DNA of 64,000 bases from Escherichia coli. GTDB taxonomy: Bacteria; Pseudomonadota; Gammaproteobacteria; Enterobacterales; Enterobacteriaceae. Below the pieces are notes generated by a model. That model had not been told where the DNA came from and searched no databases. It was given only the letters and a program-made list of their open reading frames with translations. The stretch lies in assembly GCF_036507355.1 (NCBI RefSeq), contig NZ_AP027877.1. One strand, given 5' to 3'. A program made the position numbers and the translations under genes. Shown here in pieces: positions 19,890-64,000 of this stretch. Position 1 is the first letter of the stretch. Each line of letters starts with the position of its first letter.

Positions 19890-19965
<76 letters not shown>

Positions 19966-20000
19966 TTGGGTGGTCTGTGCCTTACAGCACTTTCAAATTT

Positions 20001-20076
<76 letters not shown>

Positions 20077-20112
20077 TTGGGTGGTCTGTGCTTTACAGCA
20101 CTTTTCAAATTT

Positions 20113-20188
<76 letters not shown>

Positions 20189-49465: not shown

Positions 49466-50041
49466 GTGCAACGTGAAGATGTACTGGGAGAAGCCCTGAA
49501 ATTATTAGAATTACAAGGGATTGCCAACACCACGCTGGAGATGGTTGCTGAACGTGTGGATTATCCACTGGACGAGCTGCGCCGCTTCTGGCCAGACAAA
49601 GAGGCAATACTCTACGATGCGCTGCGTTATCTTAGCCAACAGATAGATGTCTGGCGTCGTCAGCTGATGCTGGACGAAACGCAAACCGCCGAACAAAAGC
49701 TGCTGGCACGTTATCAGGCGTTATCGGAGTGCGTTAAAAACAACCGCTATCCGGGCTGTCTATTTATCGCTGCCTGTACGTTTTATCCCGATCCTGGCCA
49801 CCCTATTCATCAACTGGCCGATCAGCAAAAAAGCGCGGCCTACGATTTCACCCACGAACTGTTAACCACGCTGGAAGTTGACGATCCAGCGATGGTAGCA
49901 AAGCAGATGGAACTGGTGCTGGAAGGCTGTTTAAGCCGAATGCTGGTGAATCGTAGCCAGGCGGATGTCGACACCGCACATCGGCTGGCGGAAGATATCC
50001 TGCGCTTCGCCCGCTGCCGCCAGGGTGGTGCACTGACCTGA
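49466..50041 (+). CDS. yjdC: TetR-family HTH transcriptional regulator YjdC
   Basis: GTG at 49466 ([31 protein letters not shown]..., 191 aa); an upstream GTG at 49442 is an alternative start. Confidence 0.8.
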
Positions 50042-50137
50042 CAGAAACACAGAAAAGAAGCGATTTGCCGCAATCTTAAGCAGTTGAATCGCTTTTACTG
50101 AAATTAGGTTGACGAGATGTGCAGATTACGGTTTAAT

Positions 50138-50213
50138 GCGCCCCGTTGCCCGGATAGCTCAGTCGGTAGAGCAGGGGATTGAAAATCCCCGTGTCCTTGG
50201 TTCGATTCCGAGT
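50138..50213 (+). tRNA. pheU: tRNA-Phe (GAA)
   Basis: GCCCGGATAGCTCAGTCGGTAGAGCAGGGGATTGAAAATCCCCGTGTCCTTGGTTCGATTCCGAGTCCGGGCACCA, 76 nt with encoded CCA. Confidence 0.96.
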
Positions 50214-50222
50214 CCGGGCACC

Positions 50223-50252
50223 AAATTCATATAAACGGACCTCCACGGAGGT
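50223..50252 (+). terminator. Intrinsic terminator after pheU
   Basis: aaacggacctcc-acgg-aggtccgttttt. Confidence 0.7.
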
Positions 50253-50839
50253 CCGTTTTTCGTTTCTGGACGCCACAATTTAAGTGTTCTGCCTTCAAAT
50301 CAATTCTACCGAACTCAACCCGATTCTCCCCACATCACCAGCAATTTGCGGGCATATCCCAATTCGGGAAAATTTGTTTCTGAGCTATAGCACTGACTGA
50401 CGTGAAATGTCGTGCGGCCCCGTGATGCTGTTGAACGTCAAATGACGTCATCAGGAGCGTAACGCATCCATAAAGCACAACATCAGTCTGAACGCCGACT
50501 GATGAGATTTTCTGAATGAGAACAAAGAGAAATGTATCGGTCCACTTGCTCATGCAAAGACTAACAATCCATTAAAATAGTAAGCGCTCTGGACAATTTT
50601 CCATGGATTATTTTCTGAACATTTTTCTTTGGCAAAGATGATGAATTTTGATGATAAGGAATATTACTTCTGGTTCTCAGTAAAATCCTTTCGTAATACC
50701 ATGTAATCAAGAAGTTTATGGCTGGTAAAAATAACGTCTTGCATTCACCAATAATATGTAAATAAACCCATCTATAGATGGTAAAAATAGGTTGTGGCAA
50801 TTATCATTGCATCATTCCCTTTTCGAATGAGTTTCTATT

Positions 50840-52378
50840 ATGCAACAACCTGTAGTTCGCGTTGGCGAATGGCTTGTTACTCCGTCCATAAACCAAATTA
50901 GCCGCAATGGGCGTCAACTTACCCTTGAGCCGAGATTAATCGATCTTCTGGTTTTCTTTGCTCAACACAGTGGCGAAGTACTTAGCAGGGATGAACTTAT
51001 CGATAATGTCTGGAAGAGAAGTATTGTCACCAATCACGTTGTGACGCAGAGTATCTCAGAACTACGTAAGTCATTAAAAGATAATGATGAAGATAGTCCT
51101 GTCTATATCGCTACTGTACCAAAGCGCGGCTATAAATTAATGGTGCCGGTTATCTGGCACAGCGAAGAAGAGGGAGAGGAAATAATGCTATCTTCGCCTC
51201 CCCCTATACCAGAGGCGGTTCCTGCCACAGATTCTCCCTCCCACAGTCTTAACATTCAAAACACCGCAACGCCACCTGAACAATCCCCAGTTAAAAGCAA
51301 ACGATTCACTACCTTTTGGGTATGGTTTTTTTTCCTGTTGTCCTTAGGTATCTGTGTAGCACTGGTAGCGTTTTCAAGTCTTGATACACGTCTTCCGATG
51401 AGCAAATCGCGTATTTTGCTCAATCCACGCGATATTGACATTAATATGGTAAATAAAAGTTGTAACAGCTGGAGTTCCCCGTATCAGCTCTCTTACGCGA
51501 TAGGCGTGGGTGATTTGGTGGCGACATCACTTAACACCTTCTCCACCTTTATGGTGCATGACAAAATCAACTACAACATTGATGAACCGAGCAGTTCCGG
51601 TAAAACATTATCTATTGCGTTTGTTAATCAGCGCCAATACCGTGCTCAACAATGCTTTATGTCGATAAAATTGGTAGACAATGCAGATGGTTCAACCATG
51701 CTGGATAAACGTTATGTCATCACTAACGGTAATCAGCTGGCGATTCAAAATGATTTACTGGAGAGTTTATCAAAAGCGTTAAACCAACCGTGGCCACAAC
51801 GAATGCAGGAGACGCTCCAGCAAATTTTGCCTCATCGTGGTGCGTTATTAACTAATTTTTATCAGGCACATGATTATTTACTGCATGGCGATGATAAATC
51901 ATTGAACCGTGCCAGTGAATTATTAGGTGAGATTGTTCAATCATCTCCAGAATTTACCTACGCGAGAGCAGAAAAAGCATTAGTTGATATCGTGCGCCAT
52001 TCTCAACATCCTTTAGATGAAAAACAATTAGCAGCACTGAACACAGAAATAGATAACATTGTTACACTACCGGAATTGAATAACTTGTCCATTATATATC
52101 AAATAAAAGCGGTCAGTGCTCTGGTAAAAGGTAAAACAGATGAGTCTTACCAGGCGATAAATACTGGCATTGATCTTGAAATGTCCTGGCTAAATTATGT
52201 ATTGCTTGGCAAGGTTTATGAAATGAAGGGGATGAACCGGGAAGCGGCTGATGCATATCTCACCGCCTTTAATTTACGCCCAGGGGCAAACACCCTTTAC
52301 TGGATTGAAAATGGTATATTCCAGACTTCTGTTCCTTATGTTGTACCTTATCTCGACAAATTTCTCGCTTCAGAATAA
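50840..52378 (+). CDS. cadC: Membrane-integrated transcriptional activator CadC (ToxR-like)
   Basis: 512-aa ORF MQQPVVRVGEWLVTPSINQISRNGRQLTLEPRLIDLL... with N-terminal winged-helix, single TM segment and periplasmic sensor. Confidence 0.95.
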   Translation: MQQPVVRVGEWLVTPSINQISRNGRQLTLEPRLIDLLVFFAQHSGEVLSRDELIDNVWKRSIVTNHVVTQSISELRKSLKDNDEDSPVYIATVPKRGYKLMVPVIWHSEEEGEEIMLSSPPPIPEAVPATDSPSHSLNIQNTATPPEQSPVKSKRFTTFWVWFFFLLSLGICVALVAFSSLDTRLPMSKSRILLNPRDIDINMVNKSCNSWSSPYQLSYAIGVGDLVATSLNTFSTFMVHDKINYNIDEPSSSGKTLSIAFVNQRQYRAQQCFMSIKLVDNADGSTMLDKRYVITNGNQLAIQNDLLESLSKALNQPWPQRMQETLQQILPHRGALLTNFYQAHDYLLHGDDKSLNRASELLGEIVQSSPEFTYARAEKALVDIVRHSQHPLDEKQLAALNTEIDNIVTLPELNNLSIIYQIKAVSALVKGKTDESYQAINTGIDLEMSWLNYVLLGKVYEMKGMNREAADAYLTAFNLRPGANTLYWIENGIFQTSVPYVVPYLDKFLASE

Positions 52379-52743
52379 GTAACCCCCGGGTTGATTCATG
52401 CTCGGGAATATTTGTTGTTGAGTTTTTGTATGTTCCTGTTGGTGTAATATGTTGCGGCAATTTATTTGCCGCATAATTTTTATTACATAAATTTAACCAG
52501 AAGACGTCACGCAATCTATTGTAAACATTGAATGTTTATCTTTTCATGATATCAACTTGCGATCCTGATGTGTTAATAAAAAACCTCAAGTTCTCACTTA
52601 CAGAAACTTTTGTGTTATTTCACCTAATCTTTAGGATTAATCCTTTTTTCGTGAGTAATCTTATCGCCAGTTTGGTCTGGTCAGGAAATAGTTATACATC
52701 ATGACCCGGACTCCAAATTCAAAAATGAAATTAGGAGAAGAGC

Positions 52744-54078
52744 ATGAGTTCTGCCAAGAAGATCGGGCTATTTGCCTGTACCGGTGTTGTTGCCGGTAAT
52801 ATGATGGGGAGCGGTATTGCATTATTACCTGCGAACCTAGCAAGTATCGGTGGTATTGCTATCTGGGGTTGGATTATCTCTATTATTGGTGCAATGTCGC
52901 TGGCGTATGTATATGCCCGACTGGCAACAAAAAACCCGCAACAAGGTGGCCCAATTGCTTATGCCGGAGAAATTTCTCCTGCATTTGGTTTTCAGACAGG
53001 TGTTCTTTATTACCATGCTAACTGGATTGGTAACCTGGCGATTGGTATTACCGCTGTATCTTATCTTTCCACCTTCTTCCCAGTATTAAATGATCCTGTT
53101 CCGGCGGGTATCGCCTGTATTGCTATCGTCTGGGTATTTACCTTTGTAAATATGCTCGGCGGTACCTGGGTAAGCCGTTTAACCACTATTGGTCTGGTGC
53201 TGGTTCTTATTCCTGTGGTGATGACTGCTATTGTTGGCTGGCATTGGTTTGATGCGGCAACTTATGCAGCTAACTGGAATACTGCGGATACCACTGATGG
53301 TCATGCGATCATTAAAAGTATTCTGCTCTGCCTGTGGGCCTTCGTGGGTGTTGAATCCGCAGCTGTAAGTACTGGTATGGTTAAAAACCCGAAACGTACC
53401 GTTCCGCTGGCAACCATGCTGGGTACTGGTTTAGCAGGTATTGTTTACATCGCTGCGACTCAGGTGCTTTCCGGTATGTATCCGTCTTCTGTAATGGCGG
53501 CCTCCGGTGCTCCGTTTGCAATCAGTGCTTCAACTATCCTCGGTAACTGGGCTGCGCCGCTGGTTTCTGCATTCACCGCCTTTGCGTGCCTGACTTCTCT
53601 GGGCTCCTGGATGATGTTGGTAGGCCAGGCAGGTGTACGTGCCGCTAACGACGGTAACTTCCCGAAAGTTTATGGTGAAGTCGACAGCAACGGTATTCCG
53701 AAAAAAGGTCTGCTGCTGGCTGCAGTGAAAATGACTGCCCTGATGATCCTCATCACTCTGATGAACTCTGCCGGTGGTAAAGCATCTGACCTGTTCGGTG
53801 AACTGACCGGTATCGCAGTACTGCTGACTATGCTGCCGTACTTCTACTCTTGCGTTGACCTGATTCGTTTTGAAGGCGTTAACATCCGCAACTTTGTCAG
53901 CCTGATCTGCTCTGTACTGGGTTGCGTGTTCTGCTTCATCGCGCTGATGGGCGCAAGCTCCTTCGAGCTGGCAGGTACCTTCATCGTCAGCCTGATTATC
54001 CTGATGTTCTACGCTCGCAAAATGCACGAGCGCCAGAGCCACTCAATGGATAACCACACCGCGTCTAACGCACATTAA
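52744..54078 (+). CDS. cadB: Lysine/cadaverine antiporter CadB
   Basis: 444-aa polytopic ORF MSSAKKIGLFACTGVVAGNMMGSGIALLPANLA... Confidence 0.95.
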   Translation: MSSAKKIGLFACTGVVAGNMMGSGIALLPANLASIGGIAIWGWIISIIGAMSLAYVYARLATKNPQQGGPIAYAGEISPAFGFQTGVLYYHANWIGNLAIGITAVSYLSTFFPVLNDPVPAGIACIAIVWVFTFVNMLGGTWVSRLTTIGLVLVLIPVVMTAIVGWHWFDAATYAANWNTADTTDGHAIIKSILLCLWAFVGVESAAVSTGMVKNPKRTVPLATMLGTGLAGIVYIAATQVLSGMYPSSVMAASGAPFAISASTILGNWAAPLVSAFTAFACLTSLGSWMMLVGQAGVRAANDGNFPKVYGEVDSNGIPKKGLLLAAVKMTALMILITLMNSAGGKASDLFGELTGIAVLLTMLPYFYSCVDLIRFEGVNIRNFVSLICSVLGCVFCFIALMGASSFELAGTFIVSLIILMFYARKMHERQSHSMDNHTASNAH

Positions 54079-54157
54079 TTAAAAGTATTTTCCGAGGCTC
54101 CTCCTTTCATTTTGTCCCATGTGTTGGGAGGGGCCTTTTTTACCTGGAGATATGACT

Positions 54158-56305
54158 ATGAACGTTATTGCAATATTGAATCACATGGGGGTTTATTTTA
54201 AAGAAGAACCCATCCGTGAACTTCATCGCGCGCTTGAACGTCTGAACTTCCAGATTGTTTACCCGAACGACCGTGACGACTTATTAAAACTGATCGAAAA
54301 CAATGCGCGTCTGTGCGGCGTTATTTTTGACTGGGATAAATATAATCTCGAGCTGTGCGAAGAAATTAGCAAAATGAACGAGAACCTGCCGTTGTACGCG
54401 TTCGCTAATACGTATTCCACTCTCGATGTAAGCCTGAATGACCTGCGTTTACAGATTAGCTTCTTTGAATATGCGCTGGGTGCTGCTGAAGATATTGCTA
54501 ACAAGATCAAGCAGACCACTGACGAATATATCAACACTATTCTGCCTCCGCTGACTAAAGCACTGTTTAAATATGTTCGTGAAGGTAAATATACTTTCTG
54601 TACTCCTGGTCACATGGGCGGTACTGCATTCCAGAAAAGCCCGGTAGGTAGCCTGTTCTATGATTTCTTTGGTCCGAATACCATGAAATCTGATATTTCC
54701 ATTTCAGTATCTGAACTGGGTTCTCTGCTGGATCACAGTGGTCCACACAAAGAAGCAGAACAGTATATCGCTCGCGTCTTTAACGCAGACCGCAGCTACA
54801 TGGTGACCAACGGTACTTCCACTGCGAACAAAATTGTTGGTATGTACTCTGCTCCGGCAGGCAGCACCATTCTGATTGACCGTAACTGCCACAAATCGCT
54901 GACCCACCTGATGATGATGAGCGATGTTACGCCAATCTATTTCCGCCCGACCCGTAACGCTTACGGTATTCTTGGTGGTATTCCACAGAGTGAATTCCAG
55001 CACGCTACCATTGCTAAGCGCGTGAAAGAAACACCAAACGCAACCTGGCCGGTACATGCTGTAATTACTAACTCTACCTATGATGGTCTGCTGTACAACA
55101 CCGACTTCATCAAGAAAACACTGGATGTGAAATCCATCCACTTTGACTCCGCGTGGGTGCCTTACACCAACTTCTCACCGATTTACGAAGGTAAATGCGG
55201 TATGAGCGGTGGCCGTGTAGAAGGGAAAGTGATTTACGAAACCCAGTCCACTCACAAACTGCTGGCGGCGTTCTCTCAGGCTTCCATGATCCACGTTAAA
55301 GGTGACGTAAACGAAGAAACCTTTAACGAAGCCTACATGATGCACACCACCACTTCTCCGCACTACGGTATCGTGGCGTCCACTGAAACCGCTGCAGCGA
55401 TGATGAAAGGTAATGCTGGTAAGCGTCTGATCAACGGTTCCATTGAACGTGCGATCAAATTCCGTAAAGAGATCAAACGTTTGAGAACGGAATCTGATGG
55501 CTGGTTCTTTGATGTATGGCAGCCGGATCATATCGATACGACTGAATGCTGGCCGCTGCGTTCTGACAGCACCTGGCACGGCTTCAAAAACATCGATAAC
55601 GAGCACATGTATCTTGACCCGATCAAAGTCACCCTGCTGACTCCGGGGATGGAAAAAGACGGCACCATGAGCGACTTTGGTATTCCGGCCAGCATCGTGG
55701 CGAAATACCTCGACGAACATGGCATCGTTGTTGAGAAAACCGGTCCGTATAACCTGCTGTTCCTGTTCAGCATCGGTATCGATAAGACCAAAGCACTGAG
55801 CCTGCTGCGTGCTCTGACTGACTTCAAACGTGCGTTCGACCTGAACCTGCGTGTGAAAAACATGCTGCCGTCTCTGTATCGTGAAGATCCTGAATTCTAT
55901 GAAAACATGCGTATTCAGGAACTGGCTCAGAATATCCACAAACTGATTGTTCACCACAATCTGCCGGATCTGATGTATCGCGCATTTGAAGTGCTGCCGA
56001 CGATGGTAATGACTCCGTATGCTGCGTTCCAGAAAGAGCTGCACGGTATGACCGAAGAAGTTTACCTCGACGAAATGGTAGGTCGTATTAACGCCAATAT
56101 GATCCTTCCATATCCGCCGGGAGTTCCTCTGGTAATGCCGGGTGAAATGATCACCGAAGAAAGCCGTCCGGTTCTGGAGTTCCTGCAGATGCTGTGTGAA
56201 ATCGGCGCTCACTATCCGGGCTTTGAAACCGATATTCACGGTGCATACCGTCAGGCTGATGGCCGCTATACCGTTAAGGTATTGAAAGAAGAAAGCAAAA
56301 AATAA
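54158..56305 (+). CDS. cadA: Inducible lysine decarboxylase CadA
   Basis: ATG at 54158 (MNVIAILNHMGVYFKEEPIRELHRALERLNF..., 715 aa) with GGAGA 8 nt upstream. Confidence 0.96.
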   Translation: MNVIAILNHMGVYFKEEPIRELHRALERLNFQIVYPNDRDDLLKLIENNARLCGVIFDWDKYNLELCEEISKMNENLPLYAFANTYSTLDVSLNDLRLQISFFEYALGAAEDIANKIKQTTDEYINTILPPLTKALFKYVREGKYTFCTPGHMGGTAFQKSPVGSLFYDFFGPNTMKSDISISVSELGSLLDHSGPHKEAEQYIARVFNADRSYMVTNGTSTANKIVGMYSAPAGSTILIDRNCHKSLTHLMMMSDVTPIYFRPTRNAYGILGGIPQSEFQHATIAKRVKETPNATWPVHAVITNSTYDGLLYNTDFIKKTLDVKSIHFDSAWVPYTNFSPIYEGKCGMSGGRVEGKVIYETQSTHKLLAAFSQASMIHVKGDVNEETFNEAYMMHTTTSPHYGIVASTETAAAMMKGNAGKRLINGSIERAIKFRKEIKRLRTESDGWFFDVWQPDHIDTTECWPLRSDSTWHGFKNIDNEHMYLDPIKVTLLTPGMEKDGTMSDFGIPASIVAKYLDEHGIVVEKTGPYNLLFLFSIGIDKTKALSLLRALTDFKRAFDLNLRVKNMLPSLYREDPEFYENMRIQELAQNIHKLIVHHNLPDLMYRAFEVLPTMVMTPYAAFQKELHGMTEEVYLDEMVGRINANMILPYPPGVPLVMPGEMITEESRPVLEFLQMLCEIGAHYPGFETDIHGAYRQADGRYTVKVLKEESKK

Positions 56306-56363
56306 TTAGCTCGTACAAGGGAAGTGGCTTGCCACTTCCCTTTTTTGCTCATAAGGAGAACAC

Positions 56364-57821
56364 ATGAAAACACCCTCACAGCCGCGCGCGATATACTATA
56401 TCGTGGCGATCCAAATCTGGGAGTACTTCAGTTTTTACGGCATGCGTGCCTTACTCATTCTCTATCTCACCCATCAGCTTGGTTTTGATGATAACCATGC
56501 CATCAGCCTGTTCAGCGCATATGCTTCTCTGGTTTACGTTACCCCTATTCTCGGCGGCTGGCTTGCCGACCGCCTGCTCGGCAACCGCACTGCAGTGATT
56601 GCCGGCGCGCTGTTAATGACCCTTGGCCATGTGGTGCTGGGCATTGATACAAATTCAACCTTTAGCCTGTATCTGGCGCTGGCAATCATTATTTGTGGCT
56701 ACGGTTTATTCAAATCAAACATCAGCTGTTTGCTTGGCGAGCTCTACGACGAGAACGATCATCGACGTGATGGCGGTTTTTCGCTGCTGTATGCTGCGGG
56801 CAATATCGGTTCTATCGCCGCCCCAATCGCCTGCGGCCTGGCTGCTCAGTGGTATGGATGGCATGTTGGCTTTGCCCTTGCGGGTGGCGGCATGTTTATC
56901 GGTTTGTTGATTTTCTTAAGCGGTCATCGTCATTTCCAGTCCACGCGTAGTATGGATAAAAAAGCGCTCACTAGCGTGAAATTTGCCTTACCAGTATGGA
57001 GCTGGTTAGTGGTGATGCTCTGTTTAGCCCCAGTATTTTTTACTCTGCTGCTGGAGAACGACTGGTCCGGATATTTGCTGGCGATCGTTTGCCTCATTGC
57101 CGCACAAATCATTGCCCGCATGATGATCAAATTCCCCGAACACCGCCGTGCTCTTTGGCAAATTGTATTGTTGATGTTTGTCGGGACGTTGTTCTGGGTA
57201 CTGGCACAACAGGGCGGCAGTACCATCAGCTTGTTTATCGATCGCTTTGTGAATCGTCAGGCATTCAATATTGAAGTACCTACTGCACTATTCCAGTCGG
57301 TGAATGCAATTGCGGTGATGCTCGCTGGGGTTGTTCTGGCCTGGCTGGCGTCGCCAGAAAGCCGCGGCAACTCAACATTGCGCGTCTGGCTGAAGTTTGC
57401 CTTTGGCTTACTGCTGATGGCTTGTGGCTTTATGTTGCTGGCATTTGATGCCCGACATGCAGCGGCTGACGGTCAAGCGTCAATGGGCGTGATGATATCC
57501 GGGTTGGCGCTAATGGGCTTTGCCGAACTCTTTATTGACCCGGTGGCGATTGCGCAAATCACGCGTCTGAAAATGTCTGGCGTATTAACCGGGATTTATA
57601 TGCTGGCAACAGGCGCGGTCGCCAACTGGCTGGCAGGCGTAGTGGCACAGCAGACGACAGAGTCGCAAATTAGCGGTATGGCAATTGCAGCTTACCAGCG
57701 ATTCTTTTCTCAGATGGGAGAGTGGACGTTGGCTTGTGTCGCGATCATCGTGGTATTGGCCTTTGCTGCCCGTTTTCTGTTTAGCACGCCGACGAATATG
57801 ATACAGGAGAGCAACGATTAA
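56364..57821 (+). CDS. dtpC: Proton-dependent di/tripeptide transporter DtpC (YjdL), POT family
   Basis: 485-aa polytopic [38 protein letters not shown]... Confidence 0.93.
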
Positions 57822-58057
57822 CTGTCGTAAAAACAATTATTTATGAATAAATTAACTTTCAGTTTATAACACTAGCAAATCGATATTAATAAGTCATTTA
57901 AACCATTTTGATGGTTATTTATTAGTGATATCAACTTGAGGTAAGCGTTAGTTTCGATAAGATAAACTGAGTTACTAATAGTCGAGGCAGATAATACAGT
58001 GTACCGATCTGTCTCTTTATCTACGCTAAATTGAAAGCTGGATTTAGAGGAACCAAA

Positions 58058-59575
58058 ATGTCTGAACAAGAAACACGGGGAGCCAATGAGGCTATTGATT
58101 TTAACGATGAACTGAGAAATCGCCGCGAAAAACTGGCGGCACTACGTCAGCAAGGTGTGGCGTTTCCCAATGATTTTCGCCGCGACCATACCTCTGACCA
58201 GTTGCACGAAGAGTTTGATGCGAAGGATAACCAGGAACTGGAATCCTTAAACATTGAAGTCTCGGTTGCTGGCCGAATGATGACCCGTCGTATCATGGGG
58301 AAAGCCTCCTTTGTAACGTTGCAGGATGTCGGTGGCCGTATTCAACTGTACGTCGCACGAGATAGCCTGCCAGAAGGTGTTTATAACGATCAGTTTAAAA
58401 AATGGGATCTGGGTGACATTATCGGTGCCCGCGGTACGCTGTTTAAGACGCAAACGGGTGAGCTTTCCATTCACTGTACTGAGCTGCGTCTGCTGACTAA
58501 AGCACTACGTCCTTTACCAGATAAATTCCATGGTCTGCAGGATCAGGAAGTTCGTTATCGTCAACGTTATCTGGACCTCATCGCTAACGATAAATCCCGT
58601 CAAACGTTTGTTGTCCGTTCAAAAATTCTGGCCGCTATCCGTCAGTTCATGGTCGCGCGCGGCTTTATGGAAGTAGAAACCCCGATGATGCAGGTAATTC
58701 CAGGTGGGGCATCTGCTCGCCCGTTTATTACCCATCATAATGCTCTGGATTTAGATATGTATCTGCGTATCGCGCCGGAGCTGTATCTGAAACGTCTGGT
58801 TGTAGGCGGTTTTGAACGGGTATTCGAAATCAACCGTAACTTCCGTAATGAAGGTATTTCTGTTCGCCATAATCCTGAGTTCACAATGATGGAACTCTAC
58901 ATGGCGTATGCGGATTACCACGATTTGATTGAACTGACAGAGTCACTGTTCCGCACCCTGGCACAAGAGGTTCTGGGTACCACTAAAGTCACTTATGGCG
59001 AGCATGTGTTTGATTTCGGCAAACCGTTTGAAAAACTCACCATGCGCGAAGCAATCAAAAAATATCGTCCAGAAACCGATATGGCCGACCTGGATAATTT
59101 TGATGCTGCTAAAGCATTAGCTGAATCTATCGGTATTACGGTAGAGAAAAGCTGGGGGCTGGGACGTATTGTCACGGAGATCTTTGATGAAGTGGCAGAA
59201 GCACATCTGATTCAGCCAACCTTTATTACGGAATATCCGGCAGAAGTGTCACCGCTGGCACGCCGTAATGATGTTAACCCGGAAATCACCGACCGTTTTG
59301 AATTCTTCATCGGTGGTCGTGAAATCGGTAATGGTTTTAGCGAATTAAACGACGCAGAAGATCAGGCTGAACGTTTCCAGGAACAGGTTAATGCTAAAGC
59401 TGCAGGTGACGACGAAGCCATGTTCTATGACGAAGATTACGTGACTGCGCTGGAATATGGTCTGCCGCCAACCGCTGGTCTGGGTATTGGTATCGACCGA
59501 ATGATTATGCTGTTCACAAACAGTCATACTATTCGCGACGTTATTCTCTTCCCGGCGATGCGCCCACAGAAATAA
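58058..59575 (+). CDS. lysU: Lysine--tRNA ligase, heat-inducible isoform
   Basis: ATG at 58058 ([40 protein letters not shown]..., 505 aa); class II aaRS. Confidence 0.95.
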
Positions 59576-59588
59576 ATTTCACTTTAAT

Positions 59589-59618
59589 GAACGAAGCAGT
59601 CAGGCGACTGCTTCGTTC
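59589..59618. terminator. Perfect 13-bp stem hairpin between the convergent lysU and ghoT (likely bidirectional terminator)
   Basis: gaacgaagcagtc-aggc-gactgcttcgttc. Confidence 0.5.
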
Positions 59619-59693
59619 GTCGTTCCGCAAATCCAGTTTTGAGGAGAGACGCTTCGTTTCACGATAACCAGCGGGTCCACTCAACTACAGCTC

Positions 59694-59867
59694 CTAAAAG
59701 AGAGAAAAAAGTAATGCCACAGGCAGACTCATTGGCCAGGTTATTCCGACCAGGAATGCACTAAGTAAACGAATATGTGTTTTCTCATGTGAGATAAACC
59801 AGATAATGACAAAGGATATGTTCACACCAATCACATAAAAAATTAATATTTTAGAGAATAGTGCCAT
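59694..59867 (-). CDS. ghoT: Type V toxin GhoT (small membrane-lytic peptide)
   Basis: Hand-translated 57-aa ORF MALFSKILIFYVIGVNISFVIIWFISHEKTHIRLLSAFLVGITWPMSLPVALLFSLF; below the ORF-track cutoff. Confidence 0.85.
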   Translation of the reverse strand: MALFSKILIFYVIGVNISFVIIWFISHEKTHIRLLSAFLVGITWPMSLPVALLFSLF

Positions 59868-59894
59868 TTTTTATGTTCTTCTTATCCTTCCTGG

Positions 59895-60191
59895 CTACTT
59901 GTAAAACTGACGGAAATAGTCATCAACTGTCATAATGTTGAGGTCAAAGTCAATATCCGGTAAGTCTAAGCATTTAAGCCTGATTAAATCTTCGATTTCA
60001 CTTGCGGCTAACGATGTCGTTATTGCGAAGGAGTTTTCATTCAATTGTCGTGGTATCCCATATTCATCAGCCACGATAGAGGAGAAATTCATATCATACA
60101 TCAATGATCTTAACCTTAAGAACACTGAGGAATAAGATGATGGATAATCAAAAGAAACAACATAAGTATTGAACTTGTTTTTACCTTCCAT
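59895..60191 (-). CDS. ghoS: Type V antitoxin GhoS (endoribonuclease cleaving ghoT mRNA)
   Basis: 98-aa ORF MEGKNKFNTYVVSFDYPSSYSSVFLRLRSLMYDMNFSSIVADEYGIP... immediately upstream of ghoT. Confidence 0.87.
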   Translation of the reverse strand: MEGKNKFNTYVVSFDYPSSYSSVFLRLRSLMYDMNFSSIVADEYGIPRQLNENSFAITTSLAASEIEDLIRLKCLDLPDIDFDLNIMTVDDYFRQFYK

Positions 60192-60417
60192 AATATGACT
60201 CCTATCAATATTGAACGCTCTGGGGACGCAAAACTTATTAACCCCGATTGATGATTCTCATATAGGAGATATTCTTTTTTTTGCTCAGTAAAGGGGATGA
60301 CTTGGGACAAAAAAACGCGCTCTCTGCCCATTCTTTGTGCATCCCCCTACCCTTCAGATGCTCTCCTGCATCACACCGTGGAGAGCATGAAAAATATCGT
60401 GAATCTGTACTCTCCCA

Positions 60418-60690
60418 TCAACTGCGAATATCATCATACTCCCGCGTTTTATCAAATTCGTGTTTCGCAAATGGACATAATGGGATAATTTTTCGTTTTT
60501 CCCGACGCATTTTTTCCACGACTTTCGCAACCAGCTGTTTACCAATCCCTTGCCCTTTCAGGCTTTCATCGACATCGGTATGTTCGATAATCGCTAAATT
60601 CTCTCCGGTCGGCACAAAGACAATTTCAGCGATTTGCTTGCCCTGTTCATCATTAATGTAAAATTTATTGTAGCCTTCGCGTATTTCCAT
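60418..60690 (-). CDS. yjdJ: GNAT-like small protein YjdJ
   Basis: 90-aa [56 protein letters not shown]... Confidence 0.8.
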
Positions 60691-60701
60691 TTTACCCTCG
60701 C

Positions 60702-60932
60702 TTATTTATGACGGTATTTCAGCGCGCCGCTCGGGCACGTATCAATCACTTTAACCACAGTGGTAACGTCGACTTCATCCGGCATGATCCACGGCTTTCG
60801 TTTGAGATTAAATAACTTGCCGTTGCCACGTACGCAATTGCCAGAATGCTGACATATCGCAGTATTGAAATAGACATCGATCTTTTCGCCGGTATAACAG
60901 CGATAACCCCCGTCCAGTAGCGCCTGATCCAT
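60702..60932 (-). CDS. yjdI: Small Cys-rich protein YjdI
   Basis: 76-aa [42 protein letters not shown]... Confidence 0.8.
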
Positions 60933-61112
60933 GACCTTCCCTCTCTCATCAGTATGATTATCGCTATAAGCATAGCCCTGGAATCCTCATACAGCACTGG
61001 CAGTTTCCGTTGCCAGAGTCTCTTCCCCTATATAGCCAATCATTCTTACTCCCTTTGAATTACCCGCCTCATCAGAGATAATGCTTAAGAAATTTGTCAC
61101 ACAAGGAAGCTG

Positions 61113-62744
61113 ATGAGACATTCATTGCCCTACCGCATGTTACGCAAACGTCCGATGAAATTGAGTACCACAGTGATCTTAATGGTCAGCGCGGTACTGT
61201 TCTCGGTGCTATTGGTGGTGCATCTGATTTACTTCTCGCAAATCAGTGATATGACGCGAGACGGGCTAGCCAACAAGGCACTGGCAGTGGCGCGTACTCT
61301 CGCCGACTCGCCGGAAATCCGTCAGGGCTTGCAGAAAAAACCGCAGGAGAGTGGAATCCAGGCCATCGCGGAAGCCGTGCGCAAACGCAACGATCTGCTG
61401 TTTATTGTCGTTACCGATATGCAAAGTCTTCGCTATTCGCATCCTGAAGCCCAGCGTATTGGTCAGCCATTTAAAGGTGATGACATCCTTAAGGCGCTGA
61501 ATGGCGAAGAAAATGTCGCTATCAATCGCGGTTTTCTGGCGCAGGCTTTACGCGTATTTACCCCCATCTACGATGAAAATCATAAACAAATTGGCGTGGT
61601 GGCGATCGGCCTTGAGTTAAGCCGCGTGACCCAACAGATCAATGACAGTCGCTGGAGCATTATCTGGTCAGTATTATTTGGCATGCTGGTCGGACTGATT
61701 GGCACCTGCATTCTGGTTAAAGTACTGAAAAAAATCCTTTTCGGCCTGGAACCCTACGAAATCTCCACGCTGTTTGAGCAACGCCAGGCCATGTTGCAGT
61801 CTATCAAAGAAGGCGTCGTTGCCGTGGACGATCGCGGCGAGGTCACGCTGATCAACGATGCCGCACAAGAATTGCTGAATTACCGTAAGTCGCAGGACGA
61901 TGAGAAACTGTCGACGCTAAGCCACTCGTGGTCACAGGTGGTAGATGTCTCGGAAGTGTTACGCGACGGTACCCCGCGCCGCGACGAAGAGATTACGATT
62001 AAAGATCGGCTATTACTGATCAACACCGTTCCGGTGCGCAGTAATGGCGTTATCATCGGTGCCATTTCAACCTTCAGGGACAAAACTGAAGTACGTAAAC
62101 TGATGCAGCGACTCGACGGTCTGGTCAACTATGCTGATGCACTTCGTGAACGATCCCACGAATTTATGAATAAATTGCATGTGATTCTCGGATTATTGCA
62201 TCTGAAGAGTTATAAGCAGTTGGAAGATTACATTCTCAAAACAGCCAATAACTATCAGGAAGAGATTGGCTCTCTGCTGGGTAAGATCAAATCTCCGGTT
62301 ATCGCTGGTTTTTTAATCAGCAAGATTAACCGCGCGACCGATTTAGGCCATACGCTGATTTTAAACAGTGAAAGCCAGCTGCCAGACAGCGGCAGTGAGG
62401 ACCAGGTCGCGACGCTGATTACCACATTGGGAAATCTGATAGAAAACGCGCTGGAAGCATTAGGGCCGGAACCCGGAGGCGAAATTAGCGTAACATTGCA
62501 CTACCGTCACGGCTGGCTGCACTGTGAAGTTAATGATGATGGACCGGGGATCGCACCCGATAAAATCGATCACATTTTTGACAAAGGTGTCTCGACAAAA
62601 GGAAGCGAGCGAGGCGTCGGTTTAGCACTTGTCAAACAACAGGTAGAAAATCTCGGCGGCAGCATCGCCGTGGAATCGGAACCCGGGATTTTCACACAAT
62701 TTTTTGTCCAGATACCCTGGGACGGGGAGAGGTCGAACAGATGA
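61113..62744 (+). CDS. dcuS: C4-dicarboxylate sensor histidine kinase DcuS
   Basis: 543-aa ORF with two TM segments flanking a periplasmic PAS-like domain, H-box (SHEFMNKLHVI) and HATPase domain. Confidence 0.95.
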   Translation: MRHSLPYRMLRKRPMKLSTTVILMVSAVLFSVLLVVHLIYFSQISDMTRDGLANKALAVARTLADSPEIRQGLQKKPQESGIQAIAEAVRKRNDLLFIVVTDMQSLRYSHPEAQRIGQPFKGDDILKALNGEENVAINRGFLAQALRVFTPIYDENHKQIGVVAIGLELSRVTQQINDSRWSIIWSVLFGMLVGLIGTCILVKVLKKILFGLEPYEISTLFEQRQAMLQSIKEGVVAVDDRGEVTLINDAAQELLNYRKSQDDEKLSTLSHSWSQVVDVSEVLRDGTPRRDEEITIKDRLLLINTVPVRSNGVIIGAISTFRDKTEVRKLMQRLDGLVNYADALRERSHEFMNKLHVILGLLHLKSYKQLEDYILKTANNYQEEIGSLLGKIKSPVIAGFLISKINRATDLGHTLILNSESQLPDSGSEDQVATLITTLGNLIENALEALGPEPGGEISVTLHYRHGWLHCEVNDDGPGIAPDKIDHIFDKGVSTKGSERGVGLALVKQQVENLGGSIAVESEPGIFTQFFVQIPWDGERSNR

Positions 62745-63460
62745 TCAATGTATTAATTATCGATGACGACGCAATGGTCGCGGAGCTGAATCGCCGATAC
62801 GTGGCACAAATCCCGGGCTTTCAATGCTGTGGAACGGCCTCGACGCTGGAGAAAGCCAAAGAGATTATCTTCAATAGCGATACGCCTATCGACCTGATAT
62901 TGCTCGATATCTATATGCAAAAAGAGAACGGGCTCGATTTACTGCCTGTCCTGCATAACGCGCGTTGCAAAAGTGATGTGATTGTCATCTCCTCCGCAGC
63001 CGATGCGGCAACCATTAAAGATTCGCTGCATTACGGTGTCGTGGATTACCTGATCAAACCCTTCCAGGCTTCCCGCTTTGAAGAGGCGCTCACCGGCTGG
63101 CGGCAAAAGAAAATGGCGCTGGAAAAACATCAGTATTATGACCAGGCCGAGCTTGATCAGCTAATCCACGGCAGCAGCTCCAACGAGCAGGATCCTCGTC
63201 GCTTGCCAAAAGGCTTAACGCCGCAGACGTTACGCACACTGTGCCAGTGGATTGACGCGCATCAGGACTATGAGTTTTCAACCGACGAGCTAGCCAACGA
63301 GGTTAACATTTCGCGTGTTTCCTGCCGTAAATACCTCATCTGGCTGGTCAACTGCCACATCTTGTTCACCAGTATCCATTATGGCGTCACGGGGCGTCCG
63401 GTTTACCGTTACCGTATTCAGGCAGAACACTACTCACTGCTGAAACAATATTGCCAATAA
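62741..63460 (+). CDS. dcuR: Response regulator DcuR
   Basis: 239-aa ORF MINVLIIDDDAMVAELNRRYVAQIPGF... (receiver domain plus C-terminal HTH); ATG overlaps the dcuS stop (ATGA). Confidence 0.95.
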   Translation: MINVLIIDDDAMVAELNRRYVAQIPGFQCCGTASTLEKAKEIIFNSDTPIDLILLDIYMQKENGLDLLPVLHNARCKSDVIVISSAADAATIKDSLHYGVVDYLIKPFQASRFEEALTGWRQKKMALEKHQYYDQAELDQLIHGSSSNEQDPRRLPKGLTPQTLRTLCQWIDAHQDYEFSTDELANEVNISRVSCRKYLIWLVNCHILFTSIHYGVTGRPVYRYRIQAEHYSLLKQYCQ

Positions 63461-63512
63461 CGGATCGCTGGTTATCTGTAAGTAATAATTATTACCGTAA
63501 TGCAAAATACCC

Positions 63513-63553
63513 CTGGCACAAGTTACATCGTTAATCAGTAAAACTTGTGCCAG
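63513..63553. other. Perfect 12-bp inverted repeat downstream of dcuR in an AT-rich spacer
   Basis: ctggcacaagtt-(17 nt)-aacttgtgccag; no U-tract, so more likely a protein-binding palindrome than a terminator. Confidence 0.3.
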
Positions 63554-64000
63554 ATCAAATATAATTATCCCTCCATCATCGTTAAAAATTAATATCTCTT
63601 CAGATGAACGGTGTTTTTAATTTCAAAACGCTAACAAAAGTTAATTAACTATTATGTCACCCGCATTATGTGTATTTTTACCCACAAATGGGTAAATCAG
63701 ATTAATCTATAAACCTAATGATATCTGCCCTGAGAACAAAAAACAGACCGATAAATATCAATAAGATAACAGCAAACAAAACATTAACATCTGCGCAGTA
63801 CAAACTTTAAACCCATCGCCAGAGAGTTTTTCTCTCTGAAAAAGCCGCTTATCACAGTGCATAAATTTGCCGCTGCTTTAATCAGCCAATATTCACTGTG
63901 AGGTATTTGCTAAAGCCGGTAACGACCAAACGGATATTTAGTCAGGCTCTGAAAACAGTTCATACAAAACAGAACGTGACTGTGATCTATTCAGCAAAAA

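Follow-up and report, generated by a model that had tools for sequence, protein, structure and literature searches.

pheU is a textbook integration site of genomic islands. The question raised by the locus described here is whether this tRNA-Phe gene is free in the chromosome under study and, if so, whether it has always been free. The window analysed is a stretch of 64,000 nucleotides of Escherichia coli (contig NZ_AP027877.1 of RefSeq assembly GCF_036507355.1), in which pheU and cadC are separated by a short spacer. An initial annotation made from the sequence regarded the site as unoccupied. This holds for the present, as dicD, pheU, the spacer and cadC are contiguous and the intact tRNA 3′-end is followed by its flanking gene with no island in between; it does not hold for the past, as the spacer contains the relic of an integrase gene. 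We conclude, with a probability of about 0.93, that the spacer is the immobile scar of an ancient island with a P4-family integrase, located beside an intact and currently free attachment site.

Organization of the pheU locus

The region 40000-64000 of the window is ordinary E. coli chromosome and can be aligned colinearly with several complete genomes at 99.4% identity. The genes around pheU are arranged as dsbD, dicD (yjdC), tRNA-Phe, cadC, cadB, cadA, dtpC (yjdL) and lysU, followed by ghoST, yjdJ, yjdI and dcuS, which is the order of K-12. A single tRNA-Phe(GAA) was called by ARAGORN, in agreement with Rfam, and both pheU and cadC are annotated at the homologous positions of other E. coli genomes. 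The tRNA had previously been placed at 50138-50213, which is 10 nt too low. The spacer accordingly spans 50224-50839 and has a length of 616 bp. The features that define the locus are:

50148-50223, + strand: pheU, tRNA-Phe(GAA), intact (ARAGORN; Rfam RF00005, 68.3 bits)
50201-50223, + strand: attB core, formed by the 3′-terminal 23 nt of the tRNA and found again as distal repeat (attR) of islands in occupied genomes
50840-52378, + strand: cadC, 512 aa (open reading frame; 100% identity to a protein named CadC)

Upstream, dicD and pheU are 106 bp apart in the window. Between the same two genes, a gene encoding a DUF1176 domain (about 670 aa) is present in E. whittamii, Escherichia sp. E1V33, several Citrobacter species and Klebsiella (locus L007, 10644-12659; same position in L008, L016, L020, L080 and others). 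Elsewhere in the window, three tandem tRNA-Gly(GCC) genes with a spacing of about 111 bp were observed on the minus strand at 19890-20188.

Remains of an island arm and an integrase gene in the spacer

The spacer was compared with the pheU island of the O111:H8 strain 8B (locus L005), in which pheU is occupied and a 421-aa integrase (WP_001218841.1) starts 198 bp past the tRNA. The following features were found between pheU and the cad genes:

50224-50386, + strand: relic of the left (attL-proximal) island arm, 163 bp (DNA alignment to the strain 8B island)
50233-50268, + strand: terminator-like hairpin (50233-50258; 11-bp stem, 4-nt loop) followed by a T-run, directly 3′ of the tRNA
50387-50419, + strand: 5′ piece of the integrase relic, codons 1-11 (tblastn, MAFFT, blastn)
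50413-50418, + strand: deletion junction TGCGGC, aligning to both sides (blastn overlap)
50421-50583, + strand: 3′ piece of the integrase relic, codons ~359-420 and stop (tblastn, blastn)
50584-50773, no strand: AT-rich stretch between the relic and the cad block

The arm (50224-50377) aligns to the 166 bp following pheU in the strain 8B island with 81% identity and a single 12-bp gap (E = 6e-39). In a tblastn search of the 421-aa integrase against the spacer, three colinear pieces in three frames were obtained with a joint E of 6e-10, namely residues 1-11 at 50387-50419, residues 359-391 at 50421-50504 and residues 397-420 at 50506-50577. The 5′ piece encodes IALTDVKCRAA where the intact protein has MALTDAKIRAA, the start codon ATG having become ATA. 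On its own this piece is weak, with 77% identity over 39 nt (50380-50418; E = 4e-4) by blastn and E = 0.12 as protein, and it was accepted on account of its colinearity with the arm, whose match is strong. The 3′ piece matches the last 200 bp of the integrase gene with 70% identity over 201 alignment columns (50413-50583; E = 2e-26), and TAGTAA at 50578-50583 aligns to the integrase stop codon (TAA).

The two blastn alignments of the integrase gene overlap on TGCGGC, and therefore approximately 1.03 kb (1,034 bp) is missing internally, corresponding to island positions ~230-1263 past the tRNA. Judged from the junction sequence, microhomology at TGCGGC probably had a role in this deletion. Further damage to the 3′ piece consists of one inserted nucleotide, two deletions of 16 and 14 nt and an in-frame stop, and the 16-nt deletion takes out the codons GCT GCT TAC (A-A-Y) including that of the catalytic tyrosine. 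In total, the integrase relic amounts to 197 bp (50387-50583), and together with the arm to 360 bp (50224-50583). It adjoins the tRNA boundary in the usual orientation, on the same strand as pheU and reading away from it.

As a gene, the relic lacks both a start codon (ATA) and an uninterrupted frame, three frames being needed and one in-frame stop being present. The arm-type DNA-binding domain (PF13356) and the central domain (PF22022) are absent with the deleted codons ~12-358, and a catalytic domain (PF00589) with its tyrosine nucleophile is likewise absent from the relic. It would thus produce no recombinase and could not excise.

The hairpin adjoining pheU is also present in intact islands with a P4-type integrase. 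A near-identical hairpin after pheU was observed in Klebsiella, Leclercia, Citrobacter, Trabulsiella and Raoultella, with 97-99% identity over the tRNA and the following 37 bp, and these loci outside Escherichia (L014, L054, L066, L083, L086) occur with or without an adjoining integrase. Because genera in which no integrase adjoins pheU have kept the hairpin as well, the initial ~40 bp of the arm may be native sequence and not island DNA.

Integrase family and the limits of profile searches

The intact integrase of strain 8B consists of the domains Arm-DNA-bind_3, Phage_int_M and Phage_integrase, and an alignment covering 97% of its length shows 54% identity to phage P4 Int. Solved structure fragments were matched by its N-terminal and central domains, among them one labelled as CP4-like integrase. 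Because its intact homologue has these domains and this similarity to P4 Int, the relic is the wreck of a P4-family integrase gene. The integrase type of strain HD12480 (394 aa), which was also considered as a source, shows no similarity to the spacer, and the relic is therefore specifically of the O111/LEE-island type.

The spacer had been described as free of an integrase, with an integrase fragment named as the finding that would speak against this view. Such a fragment is present at 50387-50583, preceded by the 163-bp arm relic, and its homology to P4-type integrases is documented at the protein level (tblastn joint E = 6e-10) as well as at the DNA level (E = 2e-26). The check that had been proposed, a search of the translated spacer with tyrosine-recombinase models, gives a false negative, as neither Pfam nor NCBIfam models matched the relic peptides even at E ≤ 10. 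Since the profile HMMs are silent on the relic, such a search would wrongly confirm that there is no integrase. The case for the relic is built on pairwise similarity to a close intact homologue. It follows that the combination of no integrase open reading frame and no HMM match does not prove that a tRNA site is virgin; the relic of 200 bp described here was visible only against a close intact integrase.

Composition of the spacer and search for a repeat of the tRNA end

With a GC content of 39%, the spacer is AT-rich compared with the whole window (50.6%), and its last 256 bp (50584-50839) have a GC content of 32%. Both this composition and the presence of a terminator, here seen as a strong terminator-like hairpin with a T-run at 50233-50258, had been recognized correctly in the initial annotation. 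The same applies to the lack of a direct repeat of the tRNA 3′-end, which can be extended to all 64 kb: in a pattern search of the window for the last 23 nt of the tRNA with up to three mismatches, the only match was the tRNA itself. In addition, ungapped scans with shuffled controls were performed for the spacer as well as for 50 kb on its upstream and 13.8 kb on its downstream side, and the best matches to the last 17, 20, 23 and 30 nt of the tRNA were at the level of shuffled sequences. Neither an attR nor any other right-hand limit of the old island was found in the window.

A search of 49500-51500 against Rfam at a permissive threshold returned the tRNA and two noise matches. In a promoter scan of the spacer, no sigma-70-like site was found on the + strand, and the cadC promoter was not found there; it may lie in 50584-50839. 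The AT-rich stretch 50584-50773 has no homology to the intact pheU island of the O111:H8 strain 8B, nor to the regions upstream of cadC in E. fergusonii or Raoultella. No conserved open reading frame is present in the relic on either strand. Two minus-strand open reading frames of 72-79 aa (50335-50553 and 50561-50800) were considered as genes and rejected, their frames being closed in K-12 and E. whittamii. Within the 3′ relic of the integrase gene, an inverted repeat with an 8-bp stem (CATCAGTC...GACTGATG, 50481-50504) was flagged as terminator-like on both strands, which is probably a chance match.

Age and distribution of the scar

The region 50100-50900, which includes the relic and the 5′-end of cadC, is covered to at least 80% in 5,210 of 5,426 complete E. 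coli genomes (96%). The scar is therefore fixed and not variably present as a mobile island would be, and it also occurs in other Escherichia species. Among 80 dicD loci of other species, the full spacer was found in Escherichia sp. E1V33 (91% identity) and E. whittamii (86%), and a part of it in one further Escherichia genome. The deletion junction in the integrase gene is identical in K-12, E1V33 and E. whittamii, and because it is common to the latter two, the scar must be old. The junction differs in SCPM-O-B-8794 (filed as E. coli, locus L009), which has 10 extra bases across it. The start codon ATG is kept in E. whittamii and Escherichia sp. E1V33 and is ATA in the window and in K-12, and the 16 nt lost from the E. 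coli relic are still present in E. whittamii.

E. albertii has the arm and approximately 41 codons (~1-41) of the same integrase gene, followed by unrelated AT-rich DNA. In E. albertii NBRC 107761 (locus L012, 10759-11438), this remnant contains a stop and a frameshift, with the start of another open reading frame beyond it; it is in a different state of decay from that of E. coli, and no cad genes adjoin it. Taken together, the comparison of these sequences indicates that the old island predates the split of these Escherichia species and that its remains decayed separately in each of them.

Present-day occupancy of pheU

In order to separate free from occupied sites, the tRNA together with the relic (50050-50500) was used as query. 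This replaced a first junction query (50150-50290), which was dropped because many islands share the arm and it was therefore blind to the difference between empty and occupied. The query was contiguous in 3,737 of 5,426 complete E. coli genomes, and about 31% are without the contiguous arrangement of pheU and scar. In those non-contiguous genomes that were sampled, an island lies between the tRNA and the scar (LEE-type, sugar-utilisation and others), with full-length integrases 177-198 bp past pheU.

The boundaries of the matches locate the point of entry. On the cadC side of occupied genomes the match begins at window position 50201, less often at 50174, and on the dicD side it ends at 50223/50229, or at 50337 where the island has the same arm type; by megablast, island-bearing genomes match from dicD through the tRNA to 50337. 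The attR of strain UTAK-23 is a 22-nt copy of the tRNA end, one G short, and in one occupied genome the end of a LEE-type island (EspG and others) abuts a 22-nt tRNA copy followed by the hairpin, the scar and cadC. A 22-bp direct repeat has been reported for islands at pheU and pheV (PMC6174562), and pheU (yjdC-cadC) is described in the literature as a site of pathogenicity islands and of the LEE. These junctions show that newly arriving islands insert into the tRNA end, with the scar downstream of them, and that attB is still usable. In the window, attB is free of an island while its flank contains integrase-derived sequence.

The pheU island of strain HD12480 is composite and exceeds 49 kb. 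Its sugar-utilisation genes (raffinose/sucrose-type) are followed by a type I restriction system and, among others, by an arginine deiminase operon, and 13.6 kb inside the island there is a second C-terminal integrase fragment of a different kind (locus L087, 13746-13930). The second fragment suggests that islands pile up in tandem at pheU. Many draft assemblies stop within about 1 kb past dicD/pheU (loci L010, L012, L015, L024, L026, L029, L036, L052 and L053), which is the expected effect of repeated island sequence or pheV-identical sequence at the tRNA.

The events leading to the present arrangement may be proposed as follows. An ancient island with a P4-family tyrosine integrase once inserted at pheU, and an internal deletion of ~1.03 kb fused codon 11 of the integrase gene to about codon 359. 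Further decay brought the loss of the start codon, frameshifts, a stop and the deletion of the catalytic tyrosine codon; flanked by the pheU terminator and the control region of cadC, the relic would since have drifted neutrally. In the sampled non-contiguous genomes, modern islands have used the 3′ 22-23 nt of pheU, and the scar and cadC are pushed behind a 22-23-nt partial copy of the tRNA. In practical terms, an "empty" pheU junction in E. coli, obtained by PCR or from an assembly, always carries the scar and is not evidence of a recent island loss.

The cadC-lysU block as possible cargo

The DNA beyond the relic is of interest with respect to the former content of the island. By comparison with E. 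fergusonii, the genes downstream of the spacer form one block, for which the following feature and chromosomal contexts were recorded:

50774-59575, + strand: cadC-cadB-cadA-dtpC(yjdL)-lysU block, 8.8 kb (blastn match to E. fergusonii)
E. coli: block between pheU with the integrase relic and ghoST
E. fergusonii: block between dgcT and tRNA-Ser(GGA) serX/ghrA
E. albertii: block with yicG/ligB as right flank, the contig starting inside cadC
Raoultella: block in another chromosomal context
Pseudescherichia vulneris: block in another chromosomal context
Trabulsiella: block in another chromosomal context, without lysU

The loci compared include L088, L091, L092, L093 and L094. The block is matched in E. 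fergusonii (L088, 9935-18757) by a single 8.8-kb alignment of 90.4% identity that begins 66 bp before cadC and ends at the lysU stop, and it lies there 453 bp from the 3′-end of tRNA-Ser(GGA) serX. Among the loci with CadC homologues that were looked up, cadC-lysU travels as one block, and it is located at a different chromosomal site in every lineage examined.

Outside Escherichia, an identical pheU sequence is present in 67 dicD loci, of which 44 extend 5 kb or more downstream. None of the 67 has cadC, cadB, cadA, dtpC or lysU after pheU, and sampled downstream open reading frames of at least 100 aa at such loci have no match elsewhere in the window. Likewise, among the 80 dicD loci nothing from window positions 59576-64000 lies within 10 kb of pheU outside Escherichia, and these loci gave no point on the right-hand side of the variable region at which synteny returns. 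Natural strains without this region are known: one lacks the same ~10 kb adjoining pheU (PMC3408504). In strain E69, filed as "E. coli" (CP089930.1; locus L011, 10759-13917), the genes next to pheU encode an Eco29kI-type restriction endonuclease and a C5 cytosine methylase; this restriction-modification pair is followed by the yjdJ/yjdI region, and the cad-dtpC-lysU block and ghoST are missing.

These observations raise the possibility that an ancient island became fixed here, with the relic as its integrase end and the cadC-lysU block (50774-59575), possibly extending to ghoST, as its cargo; the site would then still be occupied, by a domesticated island. We regard this as a tentative reading, unlikely on the present balance. 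In its favor, the block behaves as a single, sharply delimited unit (from ~66 bp before cadC to the lysU stop), occupies other chromosomal contexts in E. fergusonii, E. albertii, Raoultella, Pseudescherichia vulneris and Trabulsiella, and begins in E. coli 190 bp past the integrase stop, in a position and orientation that are cargo-like. Its genes do not follow the identical pheU of the 67 non-Escherichia loci, and exactly this block is missing at pheU in the natural strains mentioned above (PMC3408504; strain E69). The GC content of cadC is 42%, compared with 53-54% for dicD and dsbD; against the cargo reading, cadB, cadA and dtpC are near-genomic in this respect. Furthermore, no repeat of the tRNA end is found at or past the end of lysU, and the 190 bp between relic and block consist of unrelated DNA. 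E. albertii has an integrase relic of the same type at pheU and its cad block elsewhere, and no integrase adjoins the block in the lineages outside E. coli that were examined, so that the block moves there without one. Judged from the sequences, the link between block and relic consists of adjacency only.

The Cad acid-stress unit and the second lysyl-tRNA synthetase gene are nomadic in that their site changes between the lineages compared; that this block was domesticated in E. coli as the surviving cargo of a pheU island is doubtful. In the literature searched, no paper was found that states the relocation of the block or its link to an old pheU island. The relic itself is of little consequence, and the mobility of the block could matter more. 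If the block is really mobile, this would give an origin for the duplicate lysine genes of E. coli (cadA/ldcC and lysU/lysS) and would explain its clean loss in Shigella-like lineages.

Alternative explanations of the spacer

Apart from its origin, the relic could have been kept for a new role, for instance within the promoter of cadC or a control region bound by H-NS, or as a gene for a small RNA or peptide. Its presence in 96% of the complete E. coli genomes, its conservation at 86-91% in other Escherichia species and its AT-rich composition directly upstream of a regulated gene would fit such a role. We nevertheless consider it quite improbable, since the identity within E. coli (96-98%) is no higher than that of neighbouring non-coding DNA, and indels keep accumulating and differ between lineages. 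Neither an Rfam family above noise nor a promoter-like site on the + strand was found, and both K-12 and E. whittamii have the minus-strand frames (72-79 aa) closed.

That the site is simply unoccupied and the spacer is native intergenic DNA (terminator and cadC promoter region) that never belonged to an island would agree with the lack of an intact integrase open reading frame and of an att repeat, with the silence of the recombinase HMMs and with its being the majority arrangement in E. coli (3,737 of 5,426), but it is very improbable given that 50224-50583 shows colinear homology to an intact P4-type island integrase and its arm, covering codons 1-11 and the final ~63 codons, and that public annotation lists an integrase pseudogene at this position. 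An immobile scar beside a free attachment site thus remains our reading of the spacer.

Comparison with known systems

The scar can be compared with tRNA islands that grow by tandem accretion. In occupied E. coli genomes the order is pheU, island, 22/23-nt partial tRNA, scar and cadC. In the window only the oldest layer of this arrangement, the scar, is present; there is no distal repeat, and no cargo of its own is recognisable unless the cad block is that cargo.

The closest intact relatives are the P4-family (CP4-type) integrases of the LEE and of pathogenicity islands at pheU and pheV. The relic shares with them its position, the integrase gene lying 164-198 bp past the tRNA, as well as the orientation, and has a homologous arm, N-terminus and C-terminus. 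Unlike them, the window copy has kept about 74 of 421 codons and has no start codon, domains or catalytic tyrosine; it is not a functional member of the family.

The relic as such is already known, as yjdQ in K-12 and as a PGAP pseudogene in RefSeq. The pseudogene yjdQ (b4654) of K-12 MG1655 (4362191-4362353) maps to ~50421-50583 of the window, and the label given by PGAP at this spot in other E. coli is "integrase" or "tyrosine-type recombinase", with the additions "frameshifted, incomplete, missing N-terminus"; a literature search for yjdQ returned no paper. K-12 yjdQ and the window copy agree in locus, strand, sequence, deletion junction and indels. The yjdQ and PGAP annotations differ from the present description in that they cover the 3′ piece only, and the first 11 codons and the 163-bp arm were recognized here additionally. 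As codons 1-11 and the arm are present, the gene was gutted by an internal deletion and not truncated from its 5′ side.
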